Assembly: GCA_900617105.1 (NCBI GenBank)
Contig: UYFQ01000093.1
Span: 49,995-69,994 of the forward strand
Origin: Hydrurus foetidus
Lineage: Eukaryota
Reading direction: 5' to 3'
DNA length: 20,000 bases
The translations under genes and the position numbers were made by a program. Numbering within the stretch: position 1 is the stretch's first letter; the number at the start of each line of letters is the position of its first letter. Under the pieces are notes generated by a model that saw nothing but the letters and a program-made list of their open reading frames with translations, had not been told where the DNA came from and made no database searches. Shown in pieces: positions 1-19,596 of this stretch.

Positions 1-212
1 GAAGAGACAGAAAGCATCAAGACTATTGCAGAAATCATGGGGATTTCTAACCGAAGCAGCTGAGTCGCCGCTGCTGGTCGGTATGATTCCAGAGAGACTA
101 CAATGTCATGGTGATTTTGTCGCCACAGAAATCGAACAATAATTCGGAGGTGTAATTTTGATAGGAGAAGTCGTTGAATGCTCTACCAAAAGCATCGAAT
201 ACCAAGTCTGTG

Positions 213-542
213 TGTTGGAGATATCTTAGTTTATGACACGAACACAATCTGTGTACTTATGCATTCGTACGGACGTACGGATTAGTGTGTGTGTGTGTGT
301 GCGTGCATGCGTGACGACGATGTGTGGACCCGTGCTTCGGCTCGGTACTTCAAGAAGTAGTGTAGGATGTCTTTTGTTGTTGCGTTGAAAGGGACTCGGG
401 GACTTCAGCAGGGATGAAGCACAGTCAATTAACAAGTGATTACTGACAACCCAAAGCTTATTTCACGAGCCTTGACCGAGCGTTCTTCAACCGCTGTACA
501 CTCACCCACGTACGTGTCGGCTGAACCGAAGATCCGTCAACA
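213..542 (+). repeat. Copia 5' LTR (330 bp), includes (GT)8 microsatellite at 285-300
   Basis: Matches 5498-5827 at offset 5285. Terminal inverted repeat TGTTG/CAACA. Confidence 0.97.
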
Positions 543-552
543 TAATTGACTG
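543..552 (+). promoter_or_regulatory. Non-tRNA primer-binding site TAATTGACTG (putative self-priming)
   Basis: Directly abuts the 5' LTR and lacks the usual TGG start. It is the exact reverse complement of CAGTCAATTA at 422-431 inside the LTR. Confidence 0.7.
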
Positions 553-566
553 GAGCAGGCATTCCA

Positions 567-1751
567 ATGCCTCCCAAACGCGCCGCAGAAGCTTTCAAAA
601 GTACAGAGGAGTGTACGCTTCAATACGGCAAACACAACAACATCATAAGATGGAGAGAACACATGCAGACGGTAGTAACCGAGCTATACGGGATAGTGGG
701 CATGTTCTTCTCCACCAACGTGAGATATGAGCTCCCGAGAATTTCATACAGGGATTACCCTGCGGATTCGTCGTCGGAGAGCTCCAGCTCGGATGAGGAC
801 GACGACGACGGGGGCGACGATCAACCACAGCCAGCACCTGACCCAGAGGCCGTAGCGTACGCTGCTGCGAAACCTGCTCGTGTCGCCGCCAGACTGGCGA
901 GAAACGAGAGAAGACGAAAAGCGTCGGAACGTTCGAGAGCGAAGTTTAAGGAGGATGATTATATTCAGAGGAAGAGAGATGTCAAAACGCAACGTGAGAA
1001 CGAACGTACAATGTACCCCATGATGTGGAAGCGTATGTCGCTACTATCGCAGAGTAGGGTGAGGGAGGAGGAAGAGTTCAAGACCGCGTATGACACCCTG
1101 GATTGTGTTCTGCTGTGGACACTCATCAGAAGAACCCACCTCACACACATGTACGGTGGAGACGAGTCACTGCAAGAGTACAACCAACACGAACAGGAGA
1201 GTAAGTACGGGTCAATGAGGCAAGGTGAGAGGGAACATATCGTCACCTTCAAGAACAGATTTGATGAACAGGTAACAGCGAACGCAGCCGTGGGGATCGC
1301 CGCAGTGTCGGAGTCAAAGCGAGCATTGGACTTCCTAGGGAAACTCGACACCCGTCGGTACAAGGTCATGTTGGACGATATGAAGCACGACGCGCTACGG
1401 CGCAAACCGGGTGCGTTCCCCACCACGCTCGCCCTAGCATTCCACATCTCGTCAGAGTGGAATGACCGAGTGCCCGTCCATACACCCACTCCGACACCTG
1501 CGGGTGCGAACGCGGCGTACGTTGCCGAAGGTGCACATGTCACTATGACCAAGGACCCGGCCGAGAAGAAAGCGGGGAAAGCCGGAGGGGGCAGTAAGAA
1601 ATCAATAGCGGATGTGGAGTGTTACAAGTGTGAAACTAAAGGGCACTACGCAAGGGATTGCCCACAAAAGAAATCGTCATCGGAAAAAGTCCACGTCACG
1701 ACGGGGAGTCGGACGAGGAGTACGAAGGTGAATCGAGCGAGTGGGGAGTAG
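567..1751 (+). CDS. gag: Copia Gag (probably fused to Pol; frame break near 1703)
   Basis: First ATG at 567 (MPPKRAAE...). CCHC zinc knuckle CYKCETKGHYARDC at about 1620-1661. MRQGERE..F..RF gag-like motif. Confidence 0.9.
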   Translation: MPPKRAAEAFKSTEECTLQYGKHNNIIRWREHMQTVVTELYGIVGMFFSTNVRYELPRISYRDYPADSSSESSSSDEDDDDGGDDQPQPAPDPEAVAYAAAKPARVAARLARNERRRKASERSRAKFKEDDYIQRKRDVKTQRENERTMYPMMWKRMSLLSQSRVREEEEFKTAYDTLDCVLLWTLIRRTHLTHMYGGDESLQEYNQHEQESKYGSMRQGEREHIVTFKNRFDEQVTANAAVGIAAVSESKRALDFLGKLDTRRYKVMLDDMKHDALRRKPGAFPTTLALAFHISSEWNDRVPVHTPTPTPAGANAAYVAEGAHVTMTKDPAEKKAGKAGGGSKKSIADVECYKCETKGHYARDCPQKKSSSEKVHVTTGSRTRSTKVNRASGE

Positions 1752-4700
1752 CACTTGTGGCTGCAGACGAAGTGTGCTGCTTCTCGCGATTTGACGTGCT
1801 ACTAGACAACGAGGCGTCACTAAATATATTCAGCAATCCTGATTTGCTTACCGACGTTAGAAAGTCCGAGAGAACAATAAAAGTGAGCGGAATTCAACAG
1901 GGAGCGGGAGTGTCAGTCGATCGGGAAGGAGAGTTCGGCGAATTTGGGACGGTGTACTACAGCGGTTCAGCCTCAGCAAATATTCTGTCATTTGCTTCCC
2001 AAGTCGACTCAGGGGCGTCGATTCGGTACGACCACCTGAGCGACTGCTTCACTCTCCAGCCGAAGGGAAGCACGAGGATCTATCGCTTCGGAAGAAAGCG
2101 TGTCGTTGGGAGCGAGGGAAGATTCTATTCCTGTGATTGGAGAGAGATGGAGTGCGGGAGCGCACTTGTCACGACAGTAGTCGAGAATTTAAAGGCATTT
2201 ACGAAACGCGAAATAGAGCAGGGCAGGCGTGCCCGCGAGCTACTGGCCAGAATGGGATTCCCGACGGTAGAACAGGCGATGTCAATCGTCAATAGCGGGA
2301 GCAATTTTGACGTGACAGCAAGAGACTTCCAGATCGCAGACGCGATATGGGGGAAGGACATCGCATCGCTGAAGGGTAAAACAACGAAGAGAGCTACAGC
2401 CGTCGCCGATATAACCGTGAGCACAAAAATCTTACAACGGGATCAGGTGTTATCGATTGACATTATGTTTATAGAGAAATTAGCTATTCTAGTTGGGGTG
2501 GCTACTCCGTTAGGACTAACTATCGCATACAGTCTTAACACAGCTGATCTAAAGAAGCCGGCGAGGACAGCAGGGCAAGTCAAGATCGGCATCAACCATT
2601 TCCTCGGTGTCCTCGCGTCTCAAAACTTTCGGACGTCCATCATCATGAGCGACGGAGAGGGGGCGGTCACCAGCCTTGTCGACGAGTTGGGAAAACTCGG
2701 AGTTGAAGTCGACGTGAGCGGAGCTGGGGGTCACGTGGCTAGAATCGAGAGAAGAATAAGAGTTATTAAAGAAAGGGTACGGGCTCACGTAGCGTACCAC
2801 CTGCCGTTCACCCTGTCGACCGTGGGTATAGCCATGTGTGTACTGTACTGTATATCTAGGCTGAACTACGAACCGGCCGGTTTACGGGGATACGGCCCAA
2901 GTCCCCGCGAGGCGTTTATAGGAAGGAAGCCAGATGGTAAGCGAGATTTTCGTTGTTCGTTTGGCGACTACGCGCAGTGTACCGTACCAAACACAGATGC
3001 AGGACTAGGGAGTCGCACAGAAGACTGCGTGGTGATGCTCCCGCTTGGCAACCGTACAGGGTCCGTGAGAATGCTCTCTCTGAGTACTGGACGACTGGTG
3101 AATAGAGACCAATTTAGAATATTACCGATGCCAGAATCGGTAATCAAGAGGCTTAACGAACTTGCGCTAGCAGACGGGCGTGTGAAAGGTAAAGGTGAGC
3201 TGTACGAGCGACCGTTGTCGTACAAACAGGACGGAGACTCTAGGGGGAATCTACCAGACACGATCGAGCCTACGGTGAACGACGGTGTAGACCCATCCAT
3301 ATTACCGCTAGACGGAGATGAGCATGGGGAAGCGATAGACGAGAGACCGGACAGTGGGGGTGAACCGGTTGAAAACGGGGGTGACTACCGGGATCAGCAG
3401 TACGATAGCGGTGAGACACTGTACGAGCCGAATCAGCTAGACGTAAGCGAGCATCATAGTGAACCAACACATCATGCACACGATACTGAGTCCGACCACG
3501 CAATGGACGACCTGATAGCCAGCATGAACGGCATGCGAGCGGGACCGCATGACGACCACACAAATGAATCTGGAATTGTCGATGAGAGAGGAGTACCGGT
3601 AGACTATGCAGCGGCAAGCGGCGAGTGGGACGACCACACTGATTCGAGGGATGCACTGAGTGGTGCGAATGAGTCACAACCGGCGTATGCGAGTCCTCAA
3701 CGGTACGGACTGAACAAGCATGCAGTGATAGATTTCTTCAGGAACGGAAAAGGGACAGCGCTGCTGACGCGCAACTACGACGGAGACGGTACGGACTGGG
3801 GCGACTACGTGCTCAATATCTCGGTGAACGAAGCGCTGCGCACAAGGGGTGATGCTGCAGTGAGTGTGATAGAGAAAGAGTTACGACAAATGGTTGACAA
3901 AAAGGTGTGGGAACCGGTCGACGTGAAAGAGCTATCGTCGGACGAGAAGCGGCGTATCATCAGGTCGAGTATGTTCCTTAAGGAGAAGTTCCTCGCGAGT
4001 GGTGAGTTCGAGAAGCTGAAGGCACGCCTCGTCGCGGGAGGCGATCAGCAGGATCGTGACCTGTATGATGACCTATCCGCGCCTACTGTTGCGACGTGTT
4101 CAGTGTTCACTCTGCTAAGCATAGCAGCACACGAGACGAGAAGCATCACTGTGATTGATATCAGCGGTGCTTTCCTGAACGCAGATATGACAACAGGACT
4201 ACCTGTACATATGAGGTTGGACAGAAACATGTCGAACATCATGATCAGACTGTCACCGGGATACTCGCGGTTCACAGACCACAAAGGATGCGTGGTGGTG
4301 CGACTAGATAAAGCGCTGTACGGGTGTGTGGAGTCGGCGGCGCTATGGTACGAGAATCTGAGGGTAAGCCTATCGGAACTAGGGTATGTGCCGAATGCGC
4401 ACGACATATGCGTGTTTAACAAGCATGACGAATACGGGGTGCAGTGCACCATCGCCGTACATGTGGATGACCTACTGGTGACTAGCAAGAATGGTGCGAT
4501 GATTGAGTCAGTGGCTAGTGGGCTGAAAAGAAGGTACGGCGATATCACTAGGAAGGATGGACCTGTAGTAAACTACCTAGGCATGGTGTTCGACCTTACC
4601 ACCACAGGTGTTGCACGCGTGTCGATGACCGGCTACGTGGAGGACATGCTCAAGGAAAGCGAGGCGAAGGGGGGTGCGAGGACGCCGGCGACAGAGGGAC

Positions 4701-5431
4701 TGTTCGAAGTGAGAGAGGATGCAGAGATGGCCACCGAGGAGCAGCGTATCAAGTTCCATCGCCTAGTGGCGAAGATGCTGTACCTCGCGAAGCGTGCAAG
4801 ACCGGACTGTCTGACGGCGGTGGCATATTTGGCGACTCGGGTAACTCGGTGCACATCAGACGACCTCGTGAAGCTGGACAGACTGCTCAAGTATGTGAGC
4901 GCGACGAGGGACAGGGGGCTAGTGTTCGCAGCTGGGAGTAAGGGGATCGTAGTGAGTGTACTTATCGATGCAGCGTATGGGGTGCATGCAGACGGGAAGT
5001 CGCACACCGGGAGCTGTGTGGTAATCGGAGAGCGTGGTGCGGTGCATAGCAAGTCAGCCAAGCAGCAGATCGTGACCAAGTCGAGCACGGAGGCGGAGCT
5101 GGTGGCACTATCTGACTCCACTAACCAAGCATTACACGTCAGACATTTTATCATAGGGCAAGGACACGCGTGCGGACCGGTCACCGTGTACCAAGATAAC
5201 ATGTCATGCATGTCGCTTATCGAAAGAGGACGGTCAGCGGCGGAGCGCACCCGCCACATAGCCATCAAGTACTTCTGGCTTAAGGAGAGAGTGGATCAAG
5301 GGGAAGCGAGAGTGAGACACCTTGGGACCAAGGAAATGTACGCGAATCTTCTGACGAAGCCGCTGCAGGGGACACAATTCAAGTGCGAGAGACAGGGGCT
5401 CACGGGCTGGGACGATGAGGCAGTAGTTTAG
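1658..5431 (+). CDS. pol: Copia Pol: protease, integrase, reverse transcriptase, RNase H
   Basis: PR motif VLLDNEAS. IN DDE motifs IDIMF / SDGEG / IERRIR. RT motifs KARLVAGG, DISGAFL, LYGCVESAALWY, HVDD. RNase H motifs IDAAYG, SSTEAE, YQDN, LTKPL. The ORF-track start at 1658 is not a real start; this is the -1 continuation of gag. Confidence 0.95.
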   Translation: MPTKEIVIGKSPRHDGESDEEYEGESSEWGVALVAADEVCCFSRFDVLLDNEASLNIFSNPDLLTDVRKSERTIKVSGIQQGAGVSVDREGEFGEFGTVYYSGSASANILSFASQVDSGASIRYDHLSDCFTLQPKGSTRIYRFGRKRVVGSEGRFYSCDWREMECGSALVTTVVENLKAFTKREIEQGRRARELLARMGFPTVEQAMSIVNSGSNFDVTARDFQIADAIWGKDIASLKGKTTKRATAVADITVSTKILQRDQVLSIDIMFIEKLAILVGVATPLGLTIAYSLNTADLKKPARTAGQVKIGINHFLGVLASQNFRTSIIMSDGEGAVTSLVDELGKLGVEVDVSGAGGHVARIERRIRVIKERVRAHVAYHLPFTLSTVGIAMCVLYCISRLNYEPAGLRGYGPSPREAFIGRKPDGKRDFRCSFGDYAQCTVPNTDAGLGSRTEDCVVMLPLGNRTGSVRMLSLSTGRLVNRDQFRILPMPESVIKRLNELALADGRVKGKGELYERPLSYKQDGDSRGNLPDTIEPTVNDGVDPSILPLDGDEHGEAIDERPDSGGEPVENGGDYRDQQYDSGETLYEPNQLDVSEHHSEPTHHAHDTESDHAMDDLIASMNGMRAGPHDDHTNESGIVDERGVPVDYAAASGEWDDHTDSRDALSGANESQPAYASPQRYGLNKHAVIDFFRNGKGTALLTRNYDGDGTDWGDYVLNISVNEALRTRGDAAVSVIEKELRQMVDKKVWEPVDVKELSSDEKRRIIRSSMFLKEKFLASGEFEKLKARLVAGGDQQDRDLYDDLSAPTVATCSVFTLLSIAAHETRSITVIDISGAFLNADMTTGLPVHMRLDRNMSNIMIRLSPGYSRFTDHKGCVVVRLDKALYGCVESAALWYENLRVSLSELGYVPNAHDICVFNKHDEYGVQCTIAVHVDDLLVTSKNGAMIESVASGLKRRYGDITRKDGPVVNYLGMVFDLTTTGVARVSMTGYVEDMLKESEAKGGARTPATEGLFEVREDAEMATEEQRIKFHRLVAKMLYLAKRARPDCLTAVAYLATRVTRCTSDDLVKLDRLLKYVSATRDRGLVFAAGSKGIVVSVLIDAAYGVHADGKSHTGSCVVIGERGAVHSKSAKQQIVTKSSTEAELVALSDSTNQALHVRHFIIGQGHACGPVTVYQDNMSCMSLIERGRSAAERTRHIAIKYFWLKERVDQGEARVRHLGTKEMYANLLTKPLQGTQFKCERQGLTGWDDEAVV

Positions 5432-5490
5432 ACATTATCTTGTGAAGAATTATGCGTGATGCGTGAACAGTGATGATTGTGATGTGGCAT

Positions 5491-5497
5491 AGGGGTG
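5491..5497 (+). promoter_or_regulatory. Short polypurine tract of the copia element
   Basis: AGGGGTG lies immediately before the 3' LTR TGTTG. Confidence 0.6.
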
Positions 5498-5827
5498 TGT
5501 TGGAGATATCTTAGTTTATGACACGAACACAATCTGTGTACTTATGCATTCGTACGGACGTACGGATTAGTGTGTGTGTGTGTGTGCGTGCATGCGTGAC
5601 GACGATGTGTGGACCCGTGCTTCGGCTCGGTACTTCAAGAAGTAGTGTAGGATGTCTTTTGTTGTTGCGTTGAAAGGGACTCGGGGACTTCAGCAGGGAT
5701 GAAGCACAGTCAATTAACAAGTGATTACTGACAACCCAAAGCTTATTTCACGAGCCTTGACCGAGCGTTCTTCAACCGCTGTACACTCACCCACGTACGT
5801 GTCGGCTGAACCGAAGATCCGTCAACA
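5498..5827 (+). repeat. Copia 3' LTR (330 bp)
   Basis: Copy of 213-542, followed by TSD CTGTG. Confidence 0.97.
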
Positions 5828-5961
5828 CTGTGCAGTACTGAAATCAAATCAGTCACCAACTTTAACTTGAATTGAATTGCAAATAGCCGCTTGCGAAGCT
5901 CAATCCTCCTCAGAATACTGAGTATCTCGCCGCAGGAGGAGCATCACCAAGCGCTGTCATC

Positions 5962-8900
5962 ATGGTATTATTTGGTCAAATTATTGTAGGGCCTCCAGGA
6001 TGTGGCAAAACAACATACTGTATGGGAATGCAGATGTTCATCGAAGCCGTTGGTAGGAATTGCAAAGTTGTCAATCTAGATTTCGCCAACGACAATCTGC
6101 CATACACTCCAGCCATCGATGTCCGCGAACTCGTATCGTTGGAGGTTCGTCATAAATTAGGAAGACCATAAAGCAATTAGTCACAGTCACAACAAGTTGA
6201 AAGTACTGCTACATATGTTAGCAGTATTCTCTGACAGCTGCTGATGAAACATCTTGTGGAGACTGCTGATCAGAATCGTTAATTCAATGATGCGATGCAA
6301 CTGCTTACCCCGAATCTAAAAGAAAATCTGACAAATCATGCAAATTGCAATCCGAAATCTGATGGTAAAGAACGTCGCTGTGCATCATTAATACACAGAG
6401 AGTAATGGAGGAATTCGAACTGGGTCCTAATGGCGGTCTAGTTTACTGTATGGAGTATCTTCTGGCGAATTTCTCATGGCTGGAGGATCGTCTAAGGGCA
6501 CTGGGAGCACAGTATATTTTATTTGACTGCCCAGGACAAGTAAGTGACGTTTAGATACTAGAGTACTGCAGCTTCAAATACTTCTACGTGAAAGTCTATT
6601 AATTTTCTGTGCTAGAGGATGCGCTGAATTCGATACAGCATTTTTTGTTTTGATTGATGGTTTCAATCGAAGACCTTTCTGGCTGCAGGGCTGGCTATGT
6701 TCGACGAACTGAGACATTCACTGACTTACTGATTGACATACTGACGACTAGAAATAATCTGACTCACCCACTAAATGCATGGCTATGTTCCTCTCTGATT
6801 GGCGCATTGACTGTCTGTCTATCTGTCTATCTATCTGTCTGATGGATAGATAGATAAACACAATGATTAGCTATAGCACGCTGTCTGTTACTGATCACAC
6901 TACATACCTCCCTCACCTCTCTTCCTTTTCAATGTTCCAGGATTATTTATATTTTTATAAGTTAAAACAAGATTTCTAAAGTTAGGTTTCAATCCCAACA
7001 GAATTGCACACTATTTCTATTTCATTCCATGCTATTTCAATTCAATAAAGTTCTTCAATCAATTGATCCATTTCGTTTTATTTTCCATTATTCTATTCCT
7101 AGGTAGAACTGTACACGCACCATACGGTTGTGAAAGATATATTGGATAGATTAAATATTCTCGATTGCCGACTGTGCAGCATACACCTAGTTGACTCATT
7201 CTACTGCTGGTACGTACGTACTTATTGTCCTGACGCACTGTCTTTACTATTTGCTCGTTGATCTGGCTTACGGACATGTTGTTGTGCCGTGCGCTTGCAC
7301 GTACTGATCGACTTAATGATAGCGATAACGCATTTATGGTATGGATGCGATCGATATCAATTGTTCTCAACACTTTCAAAACTCTTGTCCTTCAATGTCC
7401 TGGCAGCAGCACATATTGTCATTTTCTCCTTGATTCCGTTTAACTTTTTAAACACACATTATCAGCACTTGCTATTTTTATCATATTTCCTTTTTCCCGT
7501 CAAATTTCATGTCCCCTCCACAAATGCATTACTGTTCTACTATATCCAGCGAGCCTTCCACTTTCGTCTCTGCCGTTTTGTTGGTGACGTCATCAATGCT
7601 TCGACTCGGACTGCCTCACGTTAACGTTCTTTCGAAAGTACGTATCCGTAACACAATTCTTACGTACCTAACTGATGAAGATAAATGATGGATGAGAAGC
7701 AGCGAGATGACAGCCTGTAGTATCCACAGTCAGTGGTCCAATGACCGTAACTAACCCGTATTGGACAATAAAATGCACATCAAGGTGTTGTTTTTTGGCA
7801 TCAGCATGCACGCTAGCTACTTTCTAGCTGAAGGACTCGTTCTAATGTTTTCAGTTCTCCATTCTCACTCTTTTTTCCTCTGTTTACTGCTGTTATAATT
7901 TACGTATTTCCCACCACTTATCTTTACCGTTTTTTAGATCGATTTACTACCATTATATGGTCCATTACCGTTTAAACTTGATTTTTTTACGGAAATGGTG
8001 GATTTAACAAGATTGGTCAGGTGATTGAATGCACGACTATATTCTCCTAGTACAATGTAACTTCGTAGTTACTTCATCTGTCTTACATTTGATGGAATAG
8101 GATGATTTTTTTATTTACAAATCTGAAGTCGCTATTTTCGAGTTATTTCGTCTTTTTTTCTGTATGTCGCCTATATCGCAAAGCTGTAATTACTGTTTCT
8201 TCATTTACAGAATACAGAACACTTGTCTTTTAAAAGTTATAACATACTTTTAGTGAATTAATGTAATTCAACTTAATACTATGATTGATGTATGTACTGT
8301 ACATGCATGTATCGTTTACGTTACAGGTATATGGATGGCGATATAGGTGCTGAATCTTTGATAGGGGAAGATGATATGTACGATAATAATCACGATGTCG
8401 GTGACGATGATGATAATGAGAATTATTACACCTCAGATAAATACTGTGGTGAAAATGATGATAGTGATAATGATGTGCGTAAGAGTGACAGTGGTAAAGA
8501 CAAAAATATTCATAGCAGCAATACTGACATTTCTAAAAATGGTGATAATGATGACAATAGTGGAAGTGCAGATGTTGGCGACACTGAAATGAAAAATAAA
8601 ATTGATGATACAAGTACCAAAATCGAAAATATAACCCTCAACAAAGATGTGGATCAGAGCATCAAAAACACTGAATTAGCATCTAATATAAAAAAACAAG
8701 CAGTAGTAAAGAGCGCTCAAGAAAGAAGAAAAAAAATGACAGCCGGATTATGCGATGTGCTGAGTGACTATGGGCTCGTTTCTTTTCTTCCCTTGAACAT
8801 CCAGGATGGAGAGGTGATTGATTGATTGAACACGATTTTTGACTTTATCAAATGGACTGTAATCGAGTTAATTGTGTGTGTGTGTGAGGGAGGCAAGTTT

Positions 8901-12109: not shown

Positions 12110-12326
12110 TGTGACCCGCACAGCTGTACAGCTGTACGGGTACAGGCGTACGTTCGGTTCGGATCGGGGACGATCCGAGCCATCCGATTCATGACTTGCC
12201 TATCGCTGTGTTTATCTGTAAGCTAACCACATCTCTTTAGCAATAGCACCAGCACACCAGCTGCCTTCCCCTTGCCCACGCGCCCCGTTCCATCAGACCC
12301 ACCGCTGAGCCCAGAGTTAGGCCATA
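12110..12326 (+). repeat. Gypsy 5' LTR (217 bp, TG...TA; 215 bp if read as TG...CA)
   Basis: Matches 19380-19596 at offset 7270. Confidence 0.95.
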
Positions 12327-12875
12327 ATACTAGTATTTGGACCAACTTGGTGCTCTTTTTAGAGACCAGTTCCAAAACGCTTCCCAAAAACATCGCCACG
12401 ACCCGTAAAACGGCGTGCAAACAAGCTAGTAACTTGGCAACAAGTGAAAACAACGTCGAAAGACACTACAAAGGCTACGTCTAACCGACAGCCTCTGAAA
12501 CGCTTTAGTTAAAAAGCTCGAGTCGTCGATATTTTCGCGACAAAATCGTGACGGCTTCAAAACTCGAAGCCTAACGAAGCAAGTAGCTCTGAGTCGAGCA
12601 AAAGCAAGTCCCATCGTTAGAGAAACGAAAGCTGGCCAAAACGCCCGCAGTTTAGCTCCTTGAGAGGTTCAAAACGCCAGGCAACTTTTCGAGCGATTTC
12701 CGACGAAATCGCGCGAAAGTAAACCACCAACAGCTCCGTCAGTTAAAGGATCCTACGATCCCACGACATCATAGCTGCGGGATCACATCCTCAGCTCCAT
12801 AGAGAGCCGCGTCCGAGTTCCGTCGCTGTCCAAGACCCCAAGATCAAGACGTTTCCAACTCAAGACAAAAGTCCC

Positions 12876-15402
12876 ATGACAAGGGCCCAAATAAAGAAGA
12901 AAGCGGCTGCTAACGCAGCCGCCTCTGCTTCTTCAGCTCCAAGCGCTTCGCGCAGTGCTCCTCTCACTGAGAAGGAGAAGCACAAAGCGGAGCAGGCCCT
13001 TGTAAAGCAAAACATCGAGAAATCGATACAGGCTCTGGCCAAAGAAGCAATACATGTTTCGGCTACCCCAACTCGTCTTGAGGACGAACAAATTTTCTTC
13101 CAAAGCGTCTTAGCAGCAACAAAAGAAATGCAAGCAGCTCACAAGCTAGAGCAAGCACAAATAGCTGCTGCACAAGCTGCTGCCGACGCTTTAGAACCCT
13201 CAAACGACGAGCTCCTCGGGTTGGCACCCGAGGAAGCCGAGGGCGAGACAGACTCCCCCTCGATACCCGCGGGTACCTAAAAAGAGGGGGAGAAACCTCG
13301 ATACTCCCTCCGCGACTGCAACAGATCGGTGCAGAGGACGATCTGTTCGAACCATCAGTCGACGCCAAAGTCACAACAAAAAAGGCATCCGACACCGGCA
13401 AGGCCGAGGCCGACGCCGAGTCAGATCCGGAGGCTGACGCCGACGGTGACGACAATGCCAACAACAACGACGACGACAAACCCCCGACGAGTCCGACGAC
13501 GACAACGACAGTAACGTCGACGACGTTAACGACACGGGAGGCGATGGTGGCAACCCCGACAGCTCCTCCGACGAGTCCGACGCAAGTAGTGGCGACGGGG
13601 ACGACGGAGAGGGTGACGGGGACGACGACGGGAACGACAACAGCGACGACGATGAGGCGAAAGCTGAAGTCGAAGTCGAAGACGACGAGGAGGTCGAACC
13701 CGAAAAGTCTAAGCCCAAGGACAAGAAGTCCCTTAAGATAAAACCCCTCGCCAAGAAAAAGTCCCCAAAGGCGGGTCCCAAACCCGCCCCAAAGGACAAA
13801 AAGGTGAAAACCAAAGCCGATGCCAAATCCGGTAAAACACACCGCGCGCAAAAGGCGGAAAACTCGGAAGAGGATTCCCCTCCACAACGCAAAGCGGGTT
13901 TGCAAACCTCCATCATCAACATGAAGGAGGCGTACTACCTCACTCGAGAAAAACTTCTCGACGACGCTGATAAAGCAGCAAGAGCGTTTTACGAACAAGC
14001 ATACCGCCCCGGTATGTTAACCAGTTGGGAAATGCTAATCGAAATGGATGCCATCCAAACGATCCGCGACCAGTTGCTTCGATGCAAAAGCGAGACAGGT
14101 TACAACACCAAGACTTGTCTCGCCTGGCCAACGGTCGAAGGCAAAACGTTAACGTTAAAGAACATTGCAAATGATCTTAAAAAGATCTTTTACAAAAACA
14201 AACGTACGTCTTCCCATTTCGACTTCGAAATGAAGTTGAAGAATTGCAAATTCCGCATCAGCTGGAAAGATCCTTCTGTTGAAGACAGAGCTCTCTCTGA
14301 GTTCCGTGACATCCTACTCGGATTCTGGACGTCATACGACAATATCGATGCCGACATGCAAAATGATATCTGTAAGGCCTTCTACAAGAAGCTGCCAAAG
14401 AACAACAAGTTTACAGACAATTTCATGGCAAAGACAAAACGTAAGACGAAAAAGACCGGGAAAGATACCATCTTCAAAATGCTCACGCGTCTTGTCGTCA
14501 TGCTGGGCGAAGCACGCCAGATGATCAAAGACGCGGAGGACATGGGAGGTCTCGACTTCGTCTTCGAGTCAAAGCTCACGCCAACCGACCAAGACGACGC
14601 TGAGGTCGCACCTCACCGTGACAGCCACTCGGCTAACGCCTACAAGGCAATCCCAAAACGTCAGGTGGACCCTGAGTCGTCCGGCCTCAGCCGGGCGACC
14701 AACTTCTGTCACACCTGTGGCAAAAAGGGACACAACCGTTACGAATGCCAAAACCACATGAACCCTCACTGCAACCGTAGCCATCGCACTTGGTCGCAGT
14801 CTGAGGAGGCAAAGGACTTCAAACGGATTGGTCACGAATTCTTCGTACCAAATGTGTACATCAACGGGGAACTTACCCGGGACACCAACAACCCCGGGGC
14901 AGCTACCTACGTGTACCCATCTGACGATGTGGAGAACGACTTCTCTCCTCCAGGGAGAGCCCAAGACGACCGTCCGACCAAGAAACAAAAGCTGGCCACC
15001 AACAACAACACCAAGTACAACAAGTACAAGAGCAACCAGACTCAACCGGATAGGGACAACGATCGTTCTAACACGAACAAGTTGAGCTCCAACTACAAGG
15101 GAAAAAGTAAGTCACAACTTGCTAACCCAAGTACGGACATAATCGAGTACGCTCGAGAATTACCGTCAATGAAACAACTTCTATCAGCTGTATTAACTGA
15201 AAACATAGATGATTTCTTACAAGTTCACATATCTCTACCACAGATCCGATCGCAAATTTCAAACCAAGTCGCGACCGACCTGACGATCGCAGGGACAACT
15301 CGCACCAGGCGGAGAGCAAGGAGGGGGACAGACACAAATCTTCCTCTCTTCCTCCTCCTCCTCCAACCAATACGTACCAAACTAGAGGCATGGAAGCCCT
15401 AG
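12876..15402 (+). CDS. gag: Gypsy Gag with long acidic/low-complexity N-terminus (two -1 frame breaks at about 13257 and 13483)
   Basis: MTRAQIKKKAAA... continues through D/G-rich and K/P-rich frames into the 13804 ORF. Zinc knuckle CHTCGKKGHNRYEC at about 14707-14748. Confidence 0.8.
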
Positions 15403-15812
15403 CCCAAATCGACACTGGATGTCAAGTCGGGGACGTCATCAACGGTAGAGTCCTTCGGGGCCTCCGTGGCAAAACCCACTTGAGGAAATCCGACTCACCC
15501 ATGTGGATGTGTAGTGGCTTAAATAATCAATGTGTAGAATCTACAAATGTGCTTGATATTGTTGTATCATTTAATAAAGACGATTTAAAACACACTTTTA
15601 GTCTTCCTGTCCGAGTAGCTCCGGAGTCAAAAGTCGACCTAATCTTAGGATTACAGACTATAAAAAATTTAAATTTGGTAAAAATAATACCAGAGTTCTT
15701 CCAGAACCTCGATAAAATAACGCCTAGTGCGATACCAGCTTCACCGCTAAAAAACAAAGGGTGTCGTTCTCGGCTGAGGACGATGCACAAGTACCACACA
15801 CGGTACTCATAG
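15390..15812 (+). CDS. pol: Aspartic protease domain of gypsy Pol
   Basis: ALAQIDTGC catalytic motif and DLILGL motif. Confidence 0.9.
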   Translation: MEALAQIDTGCQVGDVINGRVLRGLRGKTHLRKSDSPMWMCSGLNNQCVESTNVLDIVVSFNKDDLKHTFSLPVRVAPESKVDLILGLQTIKNLNLVKIIPEFFQNLDKITPSAIPASPLKNKGCRSRLRTMHKYHTRYS

Positions 15813-15968
15813 ACACCGAACTACCCCCGAGGTAATATCAGCCGAATCAGCGTCAGCAGACACAATCCAAACGGAAATTCCTTTACCGTTACTAACGGAA
15901 AAGGACACTGTCCAAAAGGAAAGTAAAATAGCTGACCCAGGGTCCCCACTACCTCCTGGCATTTTGTC

Positions 15969-17969
15969 ATGGAGGGCATAAATCCCTCGACTACAGACTT
16001 TCCCCGGCAGGATAACCTGGTAGCTCGAGGTGCTTGTACACACAAGACTTGCAACTCTTCATGCGGGTGTTCTACAAGCTCAGCGACGGCAGTTGCTCAG
16101 CTTGCTTCCGATGAGTCCATACTACGCACCACCAATTTGACAACACTAGTGTTGCCACTTCCGCGTCAGAATGGATCTGGTGTAAAAACCAAAAGGCGTA
16201 AGAGAGTAGCTACTCTTACACCCTCATCCATAACACCAACCGAAACGCGTGGTATTGCGGCAGCTCTACTTAGGGAGGAAGACGAAGACCTCCCTGAGGT
16301 TCGGTCTTTCCGTGATAAGGAAGGGATCGACTACAAGTCGAAGGATACCTTCGCTCCTTTTCAAGACAATCAAAACAACGATTCGATGTACTTAATTGAT
16401 TTAATACATATCGATGGTACACCAACTGAGATTGCCGAAATTAAAGCGATTTGCATAAAACACAAATCGCTTTTCAAAAACGAGCTGGGTCCAGAACCCG
16501 CTCGAATTCCCCCTTTCGATTTCAAAAAGGTAAACATACCTCAATGGAAACACTTCCGTAATCGGGGTGCTCCCAGAGTCGCTTCAACGATGCGACAAGA
16601 GGAAATCAGGAAACAAATCGTAGCAATGCTCAAAAAGGGAATAATAAAACCATCCGATGCCTCATATTACTCCCAAGTAATACTTGCAAATAAACCAGAC
16701 GGTTCACTCCGATTCTGCATAGATTACAGGAACCTCAATGAGGCAACCGAATCTGCAAGTTGGCCGATCCCAAATATAAAACAAATGTTATACAGACTTG
16801 GCGCGCAACGGCCAAACGTATTCGGCGTAATCGACCTTACGGCCGGATACCACCAAGCCCCAATAACACTGGCGGCACAAGTATTTACCGCATTTATAAC
16901 ATTTATGGGTATATACCAATTCACACGACTACCATTCGGTCCCAAGATGGCCCCATCATACTTTCAACAGATGATGGCGTCAATAGTACTACTTGGCCTG
17001 ATATACAGCATCTGTGAAGTCTATTTAGACGACATCATCATATATGCTGATGGACACATCCAATTCTGTGAACGTTTAGAAACATTGTTTCAACGTCTAG
17101 AAGATAAAAACATTTCACTCAAGGCTGCAAAGCTAAGACTTAACGTCAAAGTAGTTGAATATGTTGGTAGACAAATATCTAAGGAAGGTATATCAATGAG
17201 CTCCAAAAAGATAACGGGTGTGACTGACTTTCCGATGCCAAGAAAGACAACTGAACTACGTTCGTTCCTCGGTCTCACCAATTACTTTAGGGATCATGTA
17301 CCAAATCACTCAAATGTGGTAGCACCGCTACACAAAATGATAGATCACGCCGCCAAAAAGCAAACATTGCTTGTCTGGACAGACGAAGCGGCCGACGCGT
17401 TTACGTTAGTCAAAGATCTTATCTCCAAGAGTCCCTTATTATATTTCATCGACGATGTAGCACCTATTACCCTCATGACAGATGCGTCTGACTACGGTAT
17501 AGGTGGTTATTTATATCAAGAAGTCGACGGAGTCAAACAACTCGTCGCTCTCGTAAGCAAATCTCTTACCAAGACCCAGTTGAAATGGTCCGTAATACAA
17601 AAAGAGGCTTACGCCCTTTACTTTTGCTGTGACTATCTCGACGCCCTGCTACGAGATCGTAAGTTTACTATCCTGACCGATCACAAAAATCTTACTTTCC
17701 TGCACAAGGATAAAAATGAGATGGTCGGAAGATGGCGCTGTGCGCTACAGGAATTAGATTTTACGATAGGGTATATCCCTGGGAAAAATAATGAAGTCGC
17801 TGACGCAATGTCACGCCTATGTAAAAACAAGATGCCGAAACACATCATAACAGCAATCCTAACTTGCAAACCGCTTGCAGCGGAAATATATGCATACTTA
17901 ATGCGTGTCCACAACTCTACCGTTGGGCACGGAGGATTCAATCGCACTTTGCGAAACCTAAAAAAATAG
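15969..17969 (+). CDS. pol: Reverse transcriptase + RNase H of gypsy Pol
   Basis: RT motifs LRFCIDYRNLN, IDLTAGYHQ, RLPFG, YLDD. RH motifs TDASDYGIGG, KEAYA, TDHKNL, NEVADAMSR. Confidence 0.96.
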   Translation: MEGINPSTTDFPRQDNLVARGACTHKTCNSSCGCSTSSATAVAQLASDESILRTTNLTTLVLPLPRQNGSGVKTKRRKRVATLTPSSITPTETRGIAAALLREEDEDLPEVRSFRDKEGIDYKSKDTFAPFQDNQNNDSMYLIDLIHIDGTPTEIAEIKAICIKHKSLFKNELGPEPARIPPFDFKKVNIPQWKHFRNRGAPRVASTMRQEEIRKQIVAMLKKGIIKPSDASYYSQVILANKPDGSLRFCIDYRNLNEATESASWPIPNIKQMLYRLGAQRPNVFGVIDLTAGYHQAPITLAAQVFTAFITFMGIYQFTRLPFGPKMAPSYFQQMMASIVLLGLIYSICEVYLDDIIIYADGHIQFCERLETLFQRLEDKNISLKAAKLRLNVKVVEYVGRQISKEGISMSSKKITGVTDFPMPRKTTELRSFLGLTNYFRDHVPNHSNVVAPLHKMIDHAAKKQTLLVWTDEAADAFTLVKDLISKSPLLYFIDDVAPITLMTDASDYGIGGYLYQEVDGVKQLVALVSKSLTKTQLKWSVIQKEAYALYFCCDYLDALLRDRKFTILTDHKNLTFLHKDKNEMVGRWRCALQELDFTIGYIPGKNNEVADAMSRLCKNKMPKHIITAILTCKPLAAEIYAYLMRVHNSTVGHGGFNRTLRNLKK

Positions 17970-19174
17970 GGAAAGTATGGGAAGGCATGAGACACGATAT
18001 AAGAGCATACATTAAACAATGCCCGTGTTGCCAAAAGATGTCTGCTGACAAACAAAAACCCGTCACCCATCGTTTCACAACATCAACATATGCACCTATG
18101 GAATGCATAAACATAGACTTTATTGGTCCATTCCCGGATAAAGGATACATCCTTGTTATGGTAGACACCTTCACAAGGTTTGTCGAACTATCAGCCACAA
18201 CTGATAATACTGCAAAATCAGCCGTAACAGGCCTAATAGAACACATCGGTCGCTACGGAGCTCCCAAATTCCTGCGATCCGATAACGGTTCCCATTTCGT
18301 AAACAAAATCCTCGAGGAATTTGTAAAAGTTGCCGGTACAACACACAACCTTATTCTACCATACTCTTCGCAAGAAAACTCGATAGTAGAGCGTATGAAT
18401 AAGGAAATTAACCGACACATCACGGCATTTACATTTGACCGTGCAACTACGGAAAACTACCGAGAAATTTTACCATTCGTACAACGAATTATAAATACGA
18501 CATTCAACGTACGGACACAGTCAACAGCAGCAAAGCTTATATACGGCAATGCTATTGACCTTGATGCCAACATCCTTCTCCCTCGAGATGAGATAAACTT
18601 AGACATGGCTCATGTCACCCATTCTACTGAGAAAATTATGCAGATGCAAGATGAACTCATCAGAATCACTGCTGAACTACTCAAAGAAGCGGACGAGAAA
18701 CGAAAAGCAGGCGGTTCCACCGACTACACAACGTTCGAAATCGACTCGTTGGTACTGGTTACCCACCGCACATCAAAACCAACACGCATGCACACTTTAT
18801 GGAAAGGTCCCATGCAAGTGGTCGCAAACGATCTCGACGAGTATACACTACTCGATCTTATTACCAACCGCGAAAAAAGATACCATGTATCAAATATTAA
18901 ACAATTTGAGTTTGACCCTACAAAGGTCAACCCAACCGATATCGCCCGACGAGATTATCTCGAATTCTTTATCGAAGATATCCTAGCAATGGAAGGGAAC
19001 ATCCGAGTGGTGGGAACATTAAAGTTTCACGTCAAGTGGCTAAATTATCCCCACGACAGAAACACTTGGGAACCGTGGAAAAACATGCGTGACGCTGAAA
19101 AAGTCCACGAGTTCTTAATTGCTAAAAACCTAAAACACTTGATTCCAAGTAAATTTGCTGCAAATTATCGTTAA
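17864..19174 (+). CDS. pol: Integrase with GPY/F-like motif and C-terminal chromodomain (real frame from about 17966)
   Basis: HHCC motif split by the frame break (HNSTVGH...CPCC). DDE motifs IDFIGP, SDNG, ENSIVER. LWKGPMQV. Chromodomain FFIEDIL...FHVKWLNYPHDRNTWEP at about 18962-19120. Confidence 0.95.
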   Translation: MQTACSGNICILNACPQLYRWARRIQSHFAKPKKIGKVWEGMRHDIRAYIKQCPCCQKMSADKQKPVTHRFTTSTYAPMECINIDFIGPFPDKGYILVMVDTFTRFVELSATTDNTAKSAVTGLIEHIGRYGAPKFLRSDNGSHFVNKILEEFVKVAGTTHNLILPYSSQENSIVERMNKEINRHITAFTFDRATTENYREILPFVQRIINTTFNVRTQSTAAKLIYGNAIDLDANILLPRDEINLDMAHVTHSTEKIMQMQDELIRITAELLKEADEKRKAGGSTDYTTFEIDSLVLVTHRTSKPTRMHTLWKGPMQVVANDLDEYTLLDLITNREKRYHVSNIKQFEFDPTKVNPTDIARRDYLEFFIEDILAMEGNIRVVGTLKFHVKWLNYPHDRNTWEPWKNMRDAEKVHEFLIAKNLKHLIPSKFAANYR

Positions 19175-19364
19175 CCGATACACAGTATAAAACACAAAGG
19201 TTTACAAAAAAAAACACTAAATCAAAAAGATTACTCCCAATTTTCATCCTAACAGATTTTAGGGAGGTTTACTCAGTACGAACTTTATGTTTTAATTCTG
19301 AGATAGTACAGTATTTAGACATAGATAAGTTTGTTAATGAAAAATTTAGTACACCTTTTCTTCC

Positions 19365-19375
19365 AAAGAGAGGGG
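19365..19375 (+). promoter_or_regulatory. Polypurine tract of the gypsy element
   Basis: AAAGAGAGGGG, 4 nt before the 3' LTR. Confidence 0.85.
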
Positions 19376-19379
19376 CCAT

Positions 19380-19596
19380 TGTGACCCGCACAGCTGTACA
19401 GCTGTACGGGTACAGGCGTACGTTCGGTTCGGATCGGGGACGATCCGAGCCATCCGATTCATGACTTGCCTATCGCTGTGTTTATCTGTAAGCTAACCAC
19501 ATCTCTTTAGCAATAGCACCAGCACACCAGCTGCCTTCCCCTTGCCCACGCGCCCCGTTCCATCAGACCCACCGCTGAGCCCAGAGTTAGGCCATA
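19380..19596 (+). repeat. Gypsy 3' LTR
   Basis: Copy of 12110-12326, followed by GATT. Confidence 0.95.

Follow-up and report, generated by a model that had tools for sequence, protein, structure and literature searches.

A Ty1/copia retrotransposon lies upstream of a GPN-loop GTPase gene

The window, by which we mean the whole stretch of 20,000 nucleotides analysed here, carries a complete Ty1/copia LTR element at 213-5827, flanked by a 5-bp target-site duplication, CTGTG. The two LTRs (213-542 and 5498-5827) have the same sequence throughout their 330 nt, with the ends TGTTG...CAACA. The features of the element are listed below, with reference to a sister copy, L012, that is described further on.

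208..212 (+), target-site duplication CTGTG, 5 bp, with the second copy at 5828-5832
213..542 (+), 5' LTR, 330 nt, identical to the 3' LTR
422..431 (+), predicted self-primer, exact complement of 543-552, unchanged in L012
432..542 (+), predicted rest of R-U5, a 111-nt loop from primer to primer site, 89 of 111 nt identical to L012
543..552 (+), predicted primer-binding site, complementary to the element's own LTR
557..572 (+), short hairpin with the gag start codon (ATG at 567), from RNA folds, retained in L012
567..1751 (+), gag frame with a CCHC zinc knuckle (PF00098, E 3.5e-6)
1703..1706 (+), G run with a one-base gag/pol frame offset in this copy, judged against family contigs and relatives
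1640..5431 (+), pol frame in copia order, from Pfam, motifs and alignment to relatives
1799 (+), protease motif in the pol frame
about 2200-2900 (+), integrase region lacking an HHCC finger, placed by alignment to a relative and by motif order
4961-5350 (+), RNase H motifs in the pol frame, activity predicted
5488..5497 (+), putative PPT, a short purine-rich tract before the 3' LTR, its function suggested by position
5498..5827 (+), 3' LTR, 330 nt

The identity of the LTRs, together with the duplication CTGTG, indicates that the insertion was recent, and 213-5827 is, as judged from its sequence, a recently inserted Ty1/copia retrotransposon. Depth on element contigs free of differences is 6-10 times that on flank contigs, a ratio that is not itself a copy number, and about 1,400-1,600 contigs per run fall on the stretch, which together point to a multi-copy family. 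The U3 region carries a run of TG dinucleotides at 275-301 that is longer in L012. On the same strand, an intron-containing gene for a GPN-loop GTPase begins 134 bp past the 3' LTR (5962-6144 onward), and the element has likely inserted in the promoter region of this gene. The best named match of the GTPase is from the ochrophyte Ochromonadaceae sp. CCMP2298 (68%), with a brown alga and a fungus at 65-67%, and the host is probably an ochrophyte alga.

A second LTR element, at 12110-19595, is a gypsy element with a chromodomain, identical LTRs and the duplication AGATT. Directly past its 5' LTR lies a perfect 12-nt palindrome, AATACTAGTATT, at 12326-12337, followed by a TGG located 13 nt from the LTR edge. 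No complement of 6 nt or longer to this palindrome was found in the element's own LTR, and it is reminiscent of the palindromic site in GalEa elements of fungi. The LTR itself starts with a 28-nt near-palindrome that is 93% self-complementary (12114-12141 and 19384-19411).

Coding region and classification

A Pfam scan of the copia element protein identified a reverse transcriptase (RT) of the copia type (RVT_2, PF07727, E 2.7e-24) and returned no integrase or chromodomain match. The region before the RT aligns (E 6e-19) to a stretch of the relative P0214 that matches rve, itself a weak match (E 3e-4) obtained for one of the 15 proteins scanned, and a motif search placed PR, IN, RT and RH motifs in copia order. 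With the integrase placed through P0214, the predicted domain order is consistent with the PR-IN-RT-RH arrangement of Ty1/copia, and the paired LTRs, the TG..CA ends, the target-site duplication and RVT_2 are likewise those of this group. Membership of the Tf1/sushi group was considered and rejected on the basis of RVT_2, the integrase region before the RT and the lack of a chromodomain match in that scan.

The N-terminal region of the integrase (about 2200-2450) lacks an HHCC zinc finger, as do the relatives: among the 74 full-length relatives in which the integrase anchor motif was located, none has a CxxC within 55 residues after the anchor motif and three have a His just before it. The spacing from the second Asp to the Glu of the presumed catalytic triad is 31 residues. 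Zinc knuckles were the sole matches in a PDB search, and a single-sequence fold of the integrase region reached a pLDDT of 35.

Between gag and pol the reading frame shifts by one base at the G run near 1703. Close relatives read through this point in one frame, and single ORFs of more than 1400 aa are present in 74 of the 120 relatives listed (70 of these with the knuckle), and on this ground programmed frameshifting between gag and pol was set aside as the likely explanation. One extra G behind 1702 accounts for 909 of 1194 depth units in run X1 and 1249 of 1354 in X2, and is found in none of X3. Given the one-frame relatives and the dominance of extra-G contigs in X1 and X2, the offset most likely reflects either damage to this copy or a mistake in the assembly.

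The 5' LTR edge adjoins an exact complement of an internal LTR segment

The first 10 nt past the 5' LTR (543-552, TAATTGACTG) are the exact reverse complement of 422-431 (CAGTCAATTA) within the LTR. This pairing had been picked out in an initial, sequence-only reading of the window, and sequence comparison confirmed both the complement and its precise end at the LTR edge, as the match begins at the first base past the LTR and extends no further on either side. The LTR 10-mer occurs in the window only at 422 and 5707, and among the variants listed in host-family contigs there is no change at 422-431 or 543-552, the nearby indels lying at 554 and 561. The chance of such a match had been estimated at 3e-4, with which two controls agree: shuffling the bases of the LTR 20,000 times produced the 10-mer in 3 cases, and when a pseudo-edge was moved through 21,350 positions in this element, the host flank, the gypsy element nearby and the relative L002, a complement of at least 10 nt was present in the 330 nt before it at 11 positions (about 5e-4) and one of at least 12 nt at none. 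In its position and extent, 543-552 agrees with the accessible description of predicted self-priming sites in PMC6317226, which asks for at least 10 bp of complementarity 0-5 nt from the LTR.

The complementarity is retained with different letters in relatives

Relatives were gathered by gag alignment, which yielded 11 metagenome loci and the stray contig L012 in a bacterial assembly. Five of these 12 loci (L002, L005, L006, L010 and L012) were testable, meaning that they include an LTR edge and enough upstream sequence. The loci left out were L003, which has no LTR (128 nt upstream, no match, with homology to L006 beginning at the edge), L008 (36 nt upstream), L001 (which begins at the primer site), and L004, L007, L009 and L011, in which no LTR edge was recognised. 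Searches of prokaryote genomes for further stray contigs (19, 401 and 401 genomes, and one genome) gave no additional testable LTR, L021, L022 and L017 being without a usable 5' end, and no relatives were found in viral contigs. The bacterial metagenome assembly G001 contains L012, L014 and L018, of which two reach 99% protein identity and the third 62%; these are evidently stray eukaryotic DNA.

An edge-anchored complement was found in every testable locus, being exact over 10-13 nt in four of the five and matching at 11 of 12 nt in the fifth. The sister copy L012 is 99% identical in gag and about 85% identical in the LTR, and both 10-mers are unchanged in it and stand at the same 121-nt distance, with 22 of the 111 intervening bases differing. 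The three bases right past the primer site all differ in L012, such that the TGG found there in the window is lost (TGC). Conservation in L012 also extends to the bases surrounding the primer and to the final 20 nt of the LTR, so that this copy alone is modest evidence.

The remaining testable loci are distant, with gag 24-28% identical and RT-RNase H 47-49% identical where sequence is present, and they fall on another branch of a FastTree tree (65 unnamed rows, a subsample of 267) in which deep branches are weak. A cluster look-up covering 10 of 150 representatives yielded no informative names. The nearest labelled look-alikes of the window's copia element are from diatoms (Bacillariophyta), Atlas labels that rest on 1-3 members per cluster. 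In the distant loci, the LTR edges were placed by the TG..CA ends together with a purine tract upstream, rather than by LTR pairs, and the primer sites are A+T-rich and differ in their letters from that of the window. In L002, an exact 13-nt complement lies 77 nt upstream; in L005 and L006, an exact 12-nt complement lies 79 nt upstream; and in L010, a decayed copy, 11 of 12 nt are complementary. The frequencies of these complements in shuffles are 5e-5 to 3e-4. The pairing is specific to each lineage, as the primer site of the window matches L002-type LTRs over 5 nt at most, while their sites match the window LTR over fewer than 4 nt. A comparison of L002 with L006 (about 68% identical in coding DNA) revealed a one-base indel in the primer that is matched by one in the primer site. 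L002 is related to the L005, L006 and L010 family, as seen in an 11-nt cross match, and as L005, L006 and L010 are one family, the sample comprises two deep lineages and three sequence versions rather than five independent cases. The initial reading had proposed a check on whether primer site and LTR 10-mer co-vary among related families, and in L002, L005 and L006 the letters are indeed different and the pairing is kept. The complementarity, its position at the LTR edge and its persistence with other letters in relatives are established.

It is very improbable that the LTR match is due to chance. Many windows were scanned, and an event of 5e-4 could have arisen by selection among them; against this, the relatives were tested after the window was picked, four of the five are exact, each with a shuffle frequency of 3e-4 or lower, and a complement of at least 12 nt occurs at none of the 21,350 control positions. 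The chance reading is thus largely refuted by L002, L005 and L006.

A different role for the pairing is less easily dismissed and we regard it as unlikely: the duplex could be a conserved RNA structure that serves packaging, dimerisation or control of gag translation, or the 10-mer could be internal to the transcript, with something else acting as primer, for instance a protein, a small RNA or a piece cut at both ends from within the RNA. The gag ATG is located 14 nt past the site, inside a conserved hairpin, and copia elements of the GalEa type, which are without a tRNA site, bear a hairpin of unknown use according to the accessible text of PMC5445492. However, in the window and all five testable loci the first paired base is the one next to the LTR edge, where the end of the cDNA is fixed, and the pairing is exact Watson-Crick pairing in five of the six sequences, whereas structural helices tolerate G-U pairs and shifts.

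No conserved tRNA-compatible site abuts the LTR

A mature tRNA primer requires a TGG near the LTR edge. The initial observation that no such site abuts this LTR holds, the first TGG being at 551-553, 8 nt off, and none of the six sequences (the window and the five testable loci) has a TGG within 5 nt of the edge. Priming by a half-tRNA follows a register rule of pyrimidine 32, U33, purine 37 and stem pairing. When the sequences were scanned on this rule, two registers 4-5 nt from the edge fitted loosely in the window; L012 had none, and the distant loci had a single short one that is uninformative. ARAGORN found no tRNA in the window, and an Rfam scan of 150-700 returned no match.

Another reading is that 543-552, or the TGG at 551, binds a host tRNA or half-tRNA as primer and that the LTR match is incidental or a by-product; we consider this improbable. 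The two half-tRNA registers loosely fit a Trp anticodon loop in the window, and 551-560 resembles, with two bases missing, the GalEa tRNA-Met site quoted in the accessible text of PMC5445492. The tRNA-Met-like reading of 551-560 was rejected because it is lost in L012, where the TGG, already 8 nt off the edge in the window, is replaced by TGC and the half-tRNA registers are likewise absent. Moreover, a tRNA primer would not give differing primer sites that each match their own LTR.

RNA folding

By fold computation, the 10-bp duplex has an energy of -10.5 kcal/mol. For window RNA starting at base 422, the predicted probability of the duplex is 0.97-1.0 with RNA up to 33 nt past the LTR, 0.15-0.19 at +45 and +60, 0.58 at +100 and 0 at +200, and a local hairpin at 422-445 (-3.9) competes with the duplex in this copy. 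For L012, the probability is at least 0.95 to +100 and 0 at +200, and for L002, L005 and L006, folded from their inferred starts, it is 0.78-1.0 at every length tried. Candidates for additional helices of the Tf1 type are just 5-8 bp long, with none common to the window and L012. As modelled, these results weaken the structural case for this copy and leave the covariation intact.

A proposed self-priming mechanism

Taken together, the covariation in relatives and the lack of a conserved tRNA-compatible site support self-priming, and we consider it probable that the element primes reverse transcription in a Tf1-like manner with the 5' end of its own RNA. The self-priming proposed in the sequence-only reading is thus backed on these two grounds, and that reading as a whole is partly supported. 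Transcription would start at 422 or 423: the first base of the complement in the distant loci is an A that follows a C, an initiator-like arrangement, and as the counterpart of this A in the window is A423, the RNA may start at either base. Upstream of 422, no TATA-like element can be seen. Once made, the RNA would pair through its first 9-10 nt with 543-552 across the 111-nt loop. A nick by the element's RNase H where the duplex ends would leave a 3'-OH at one base's distance from the LTR edge, and RT could extend this 3'-OH through U5-R to produce a strong-stop DNA of about 110-120 nt. Plus-strand synthesis would copy the primer into the new primer site and so pass on changes at the LTR start. 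This copying, part of the general LTR cycle, would explain both the exact match and its covariation.

Relation to known self-priming elements

The self-priming mechanism of Tf1 has been described (PMC7175516, PMC10085805), and the accessible text of PMC10085805 reports that it needs a three-helix 'pretzel'. Tf1 and Tf2 of Schizosaccharomyces pombe and the Tf1/sushi chromoviruses (Tj1, Tosmo, Tcn1) are Ty3/gypsy elements with a chromodomain, whereas the present element is a copia element in which only the central helix of the pretzel is evident, and its duplex is 10 bp long as opposed to 11 in Tf1.

That self-priming might already have been predicted for plant copia lineages was suspected from the outset, and such a prediction exists for the TAR lineage. 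In the accessible text of Neumann 2019 (PMC6317226), self-priming is predicted for 12% of the plant elements surveyed, including the gypsy lineage Tcn1 (83% of 1500) and the copia lineage TAR (89% of 203), and for TAR is termed predicted or proposed. A self-priming copia element is consequently not new as a prediction. As described there, TAR (Houba, Osr-1) resembles the present element in being copia, in having no tRNA site and in its LTR complementarity. Compared by description, TAR is known from plants, while the present element has diatom look-alikes and an integrase without HHCC, and we infer an origin independent of TAR.

The CoDi copia elements of diatoms (Maumus 2009, PMC2806351) are alike, again by description, in coming from stramenopile algae, in size, in LTR length range and in their TG..CA ends; the terms 'primer binding' and 'tRNA' do not occur in the main text of that paper. 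GalEa elements (FunEa1), fungal copia with a Conserved Hairpin Site, are also without a tRNA primer site, but as far as the accessible text of PMC5445492 goes, their site is a palindrome that pairs downstream and has no LTR complement, in contrast to the present non-palindromic site, which pairs with the LTR. We found no report of self-priming in algal or stramenopile copia in the literature searched, a body of work that most subscription papers fall outside.

These comparisons bear on a broader reading towards which we lean slightly, namely that an algal and protist copia radiation with an integrase lacking HHCC, spanning diatoms to chrysophyte-like hosts, dropped tRNA priming in favour of single-helix self-priming that arose independently of Tf1/sushi and of TAR. 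If true, few self-priming lineages would be as wide, and it would follow that a copia RNase H is able to cut its own primer. As the mechanism itself is already known, the gain would be one of range and convergence rather than of a new principle. Self-priming has been worked out for Tf1-type gypsy elements, and for copia we found predictions alone; a young multi-copy family with identical LTRs allows a direct test of primer cutting by a copia RT/RNase H. For the element, self-priming would remove the dependence on host tRNA supply and bind replication to an exact transcription start site, and algal elements of this sort would be recorded as having no tRNA site by annotation pipelines in which one is required.
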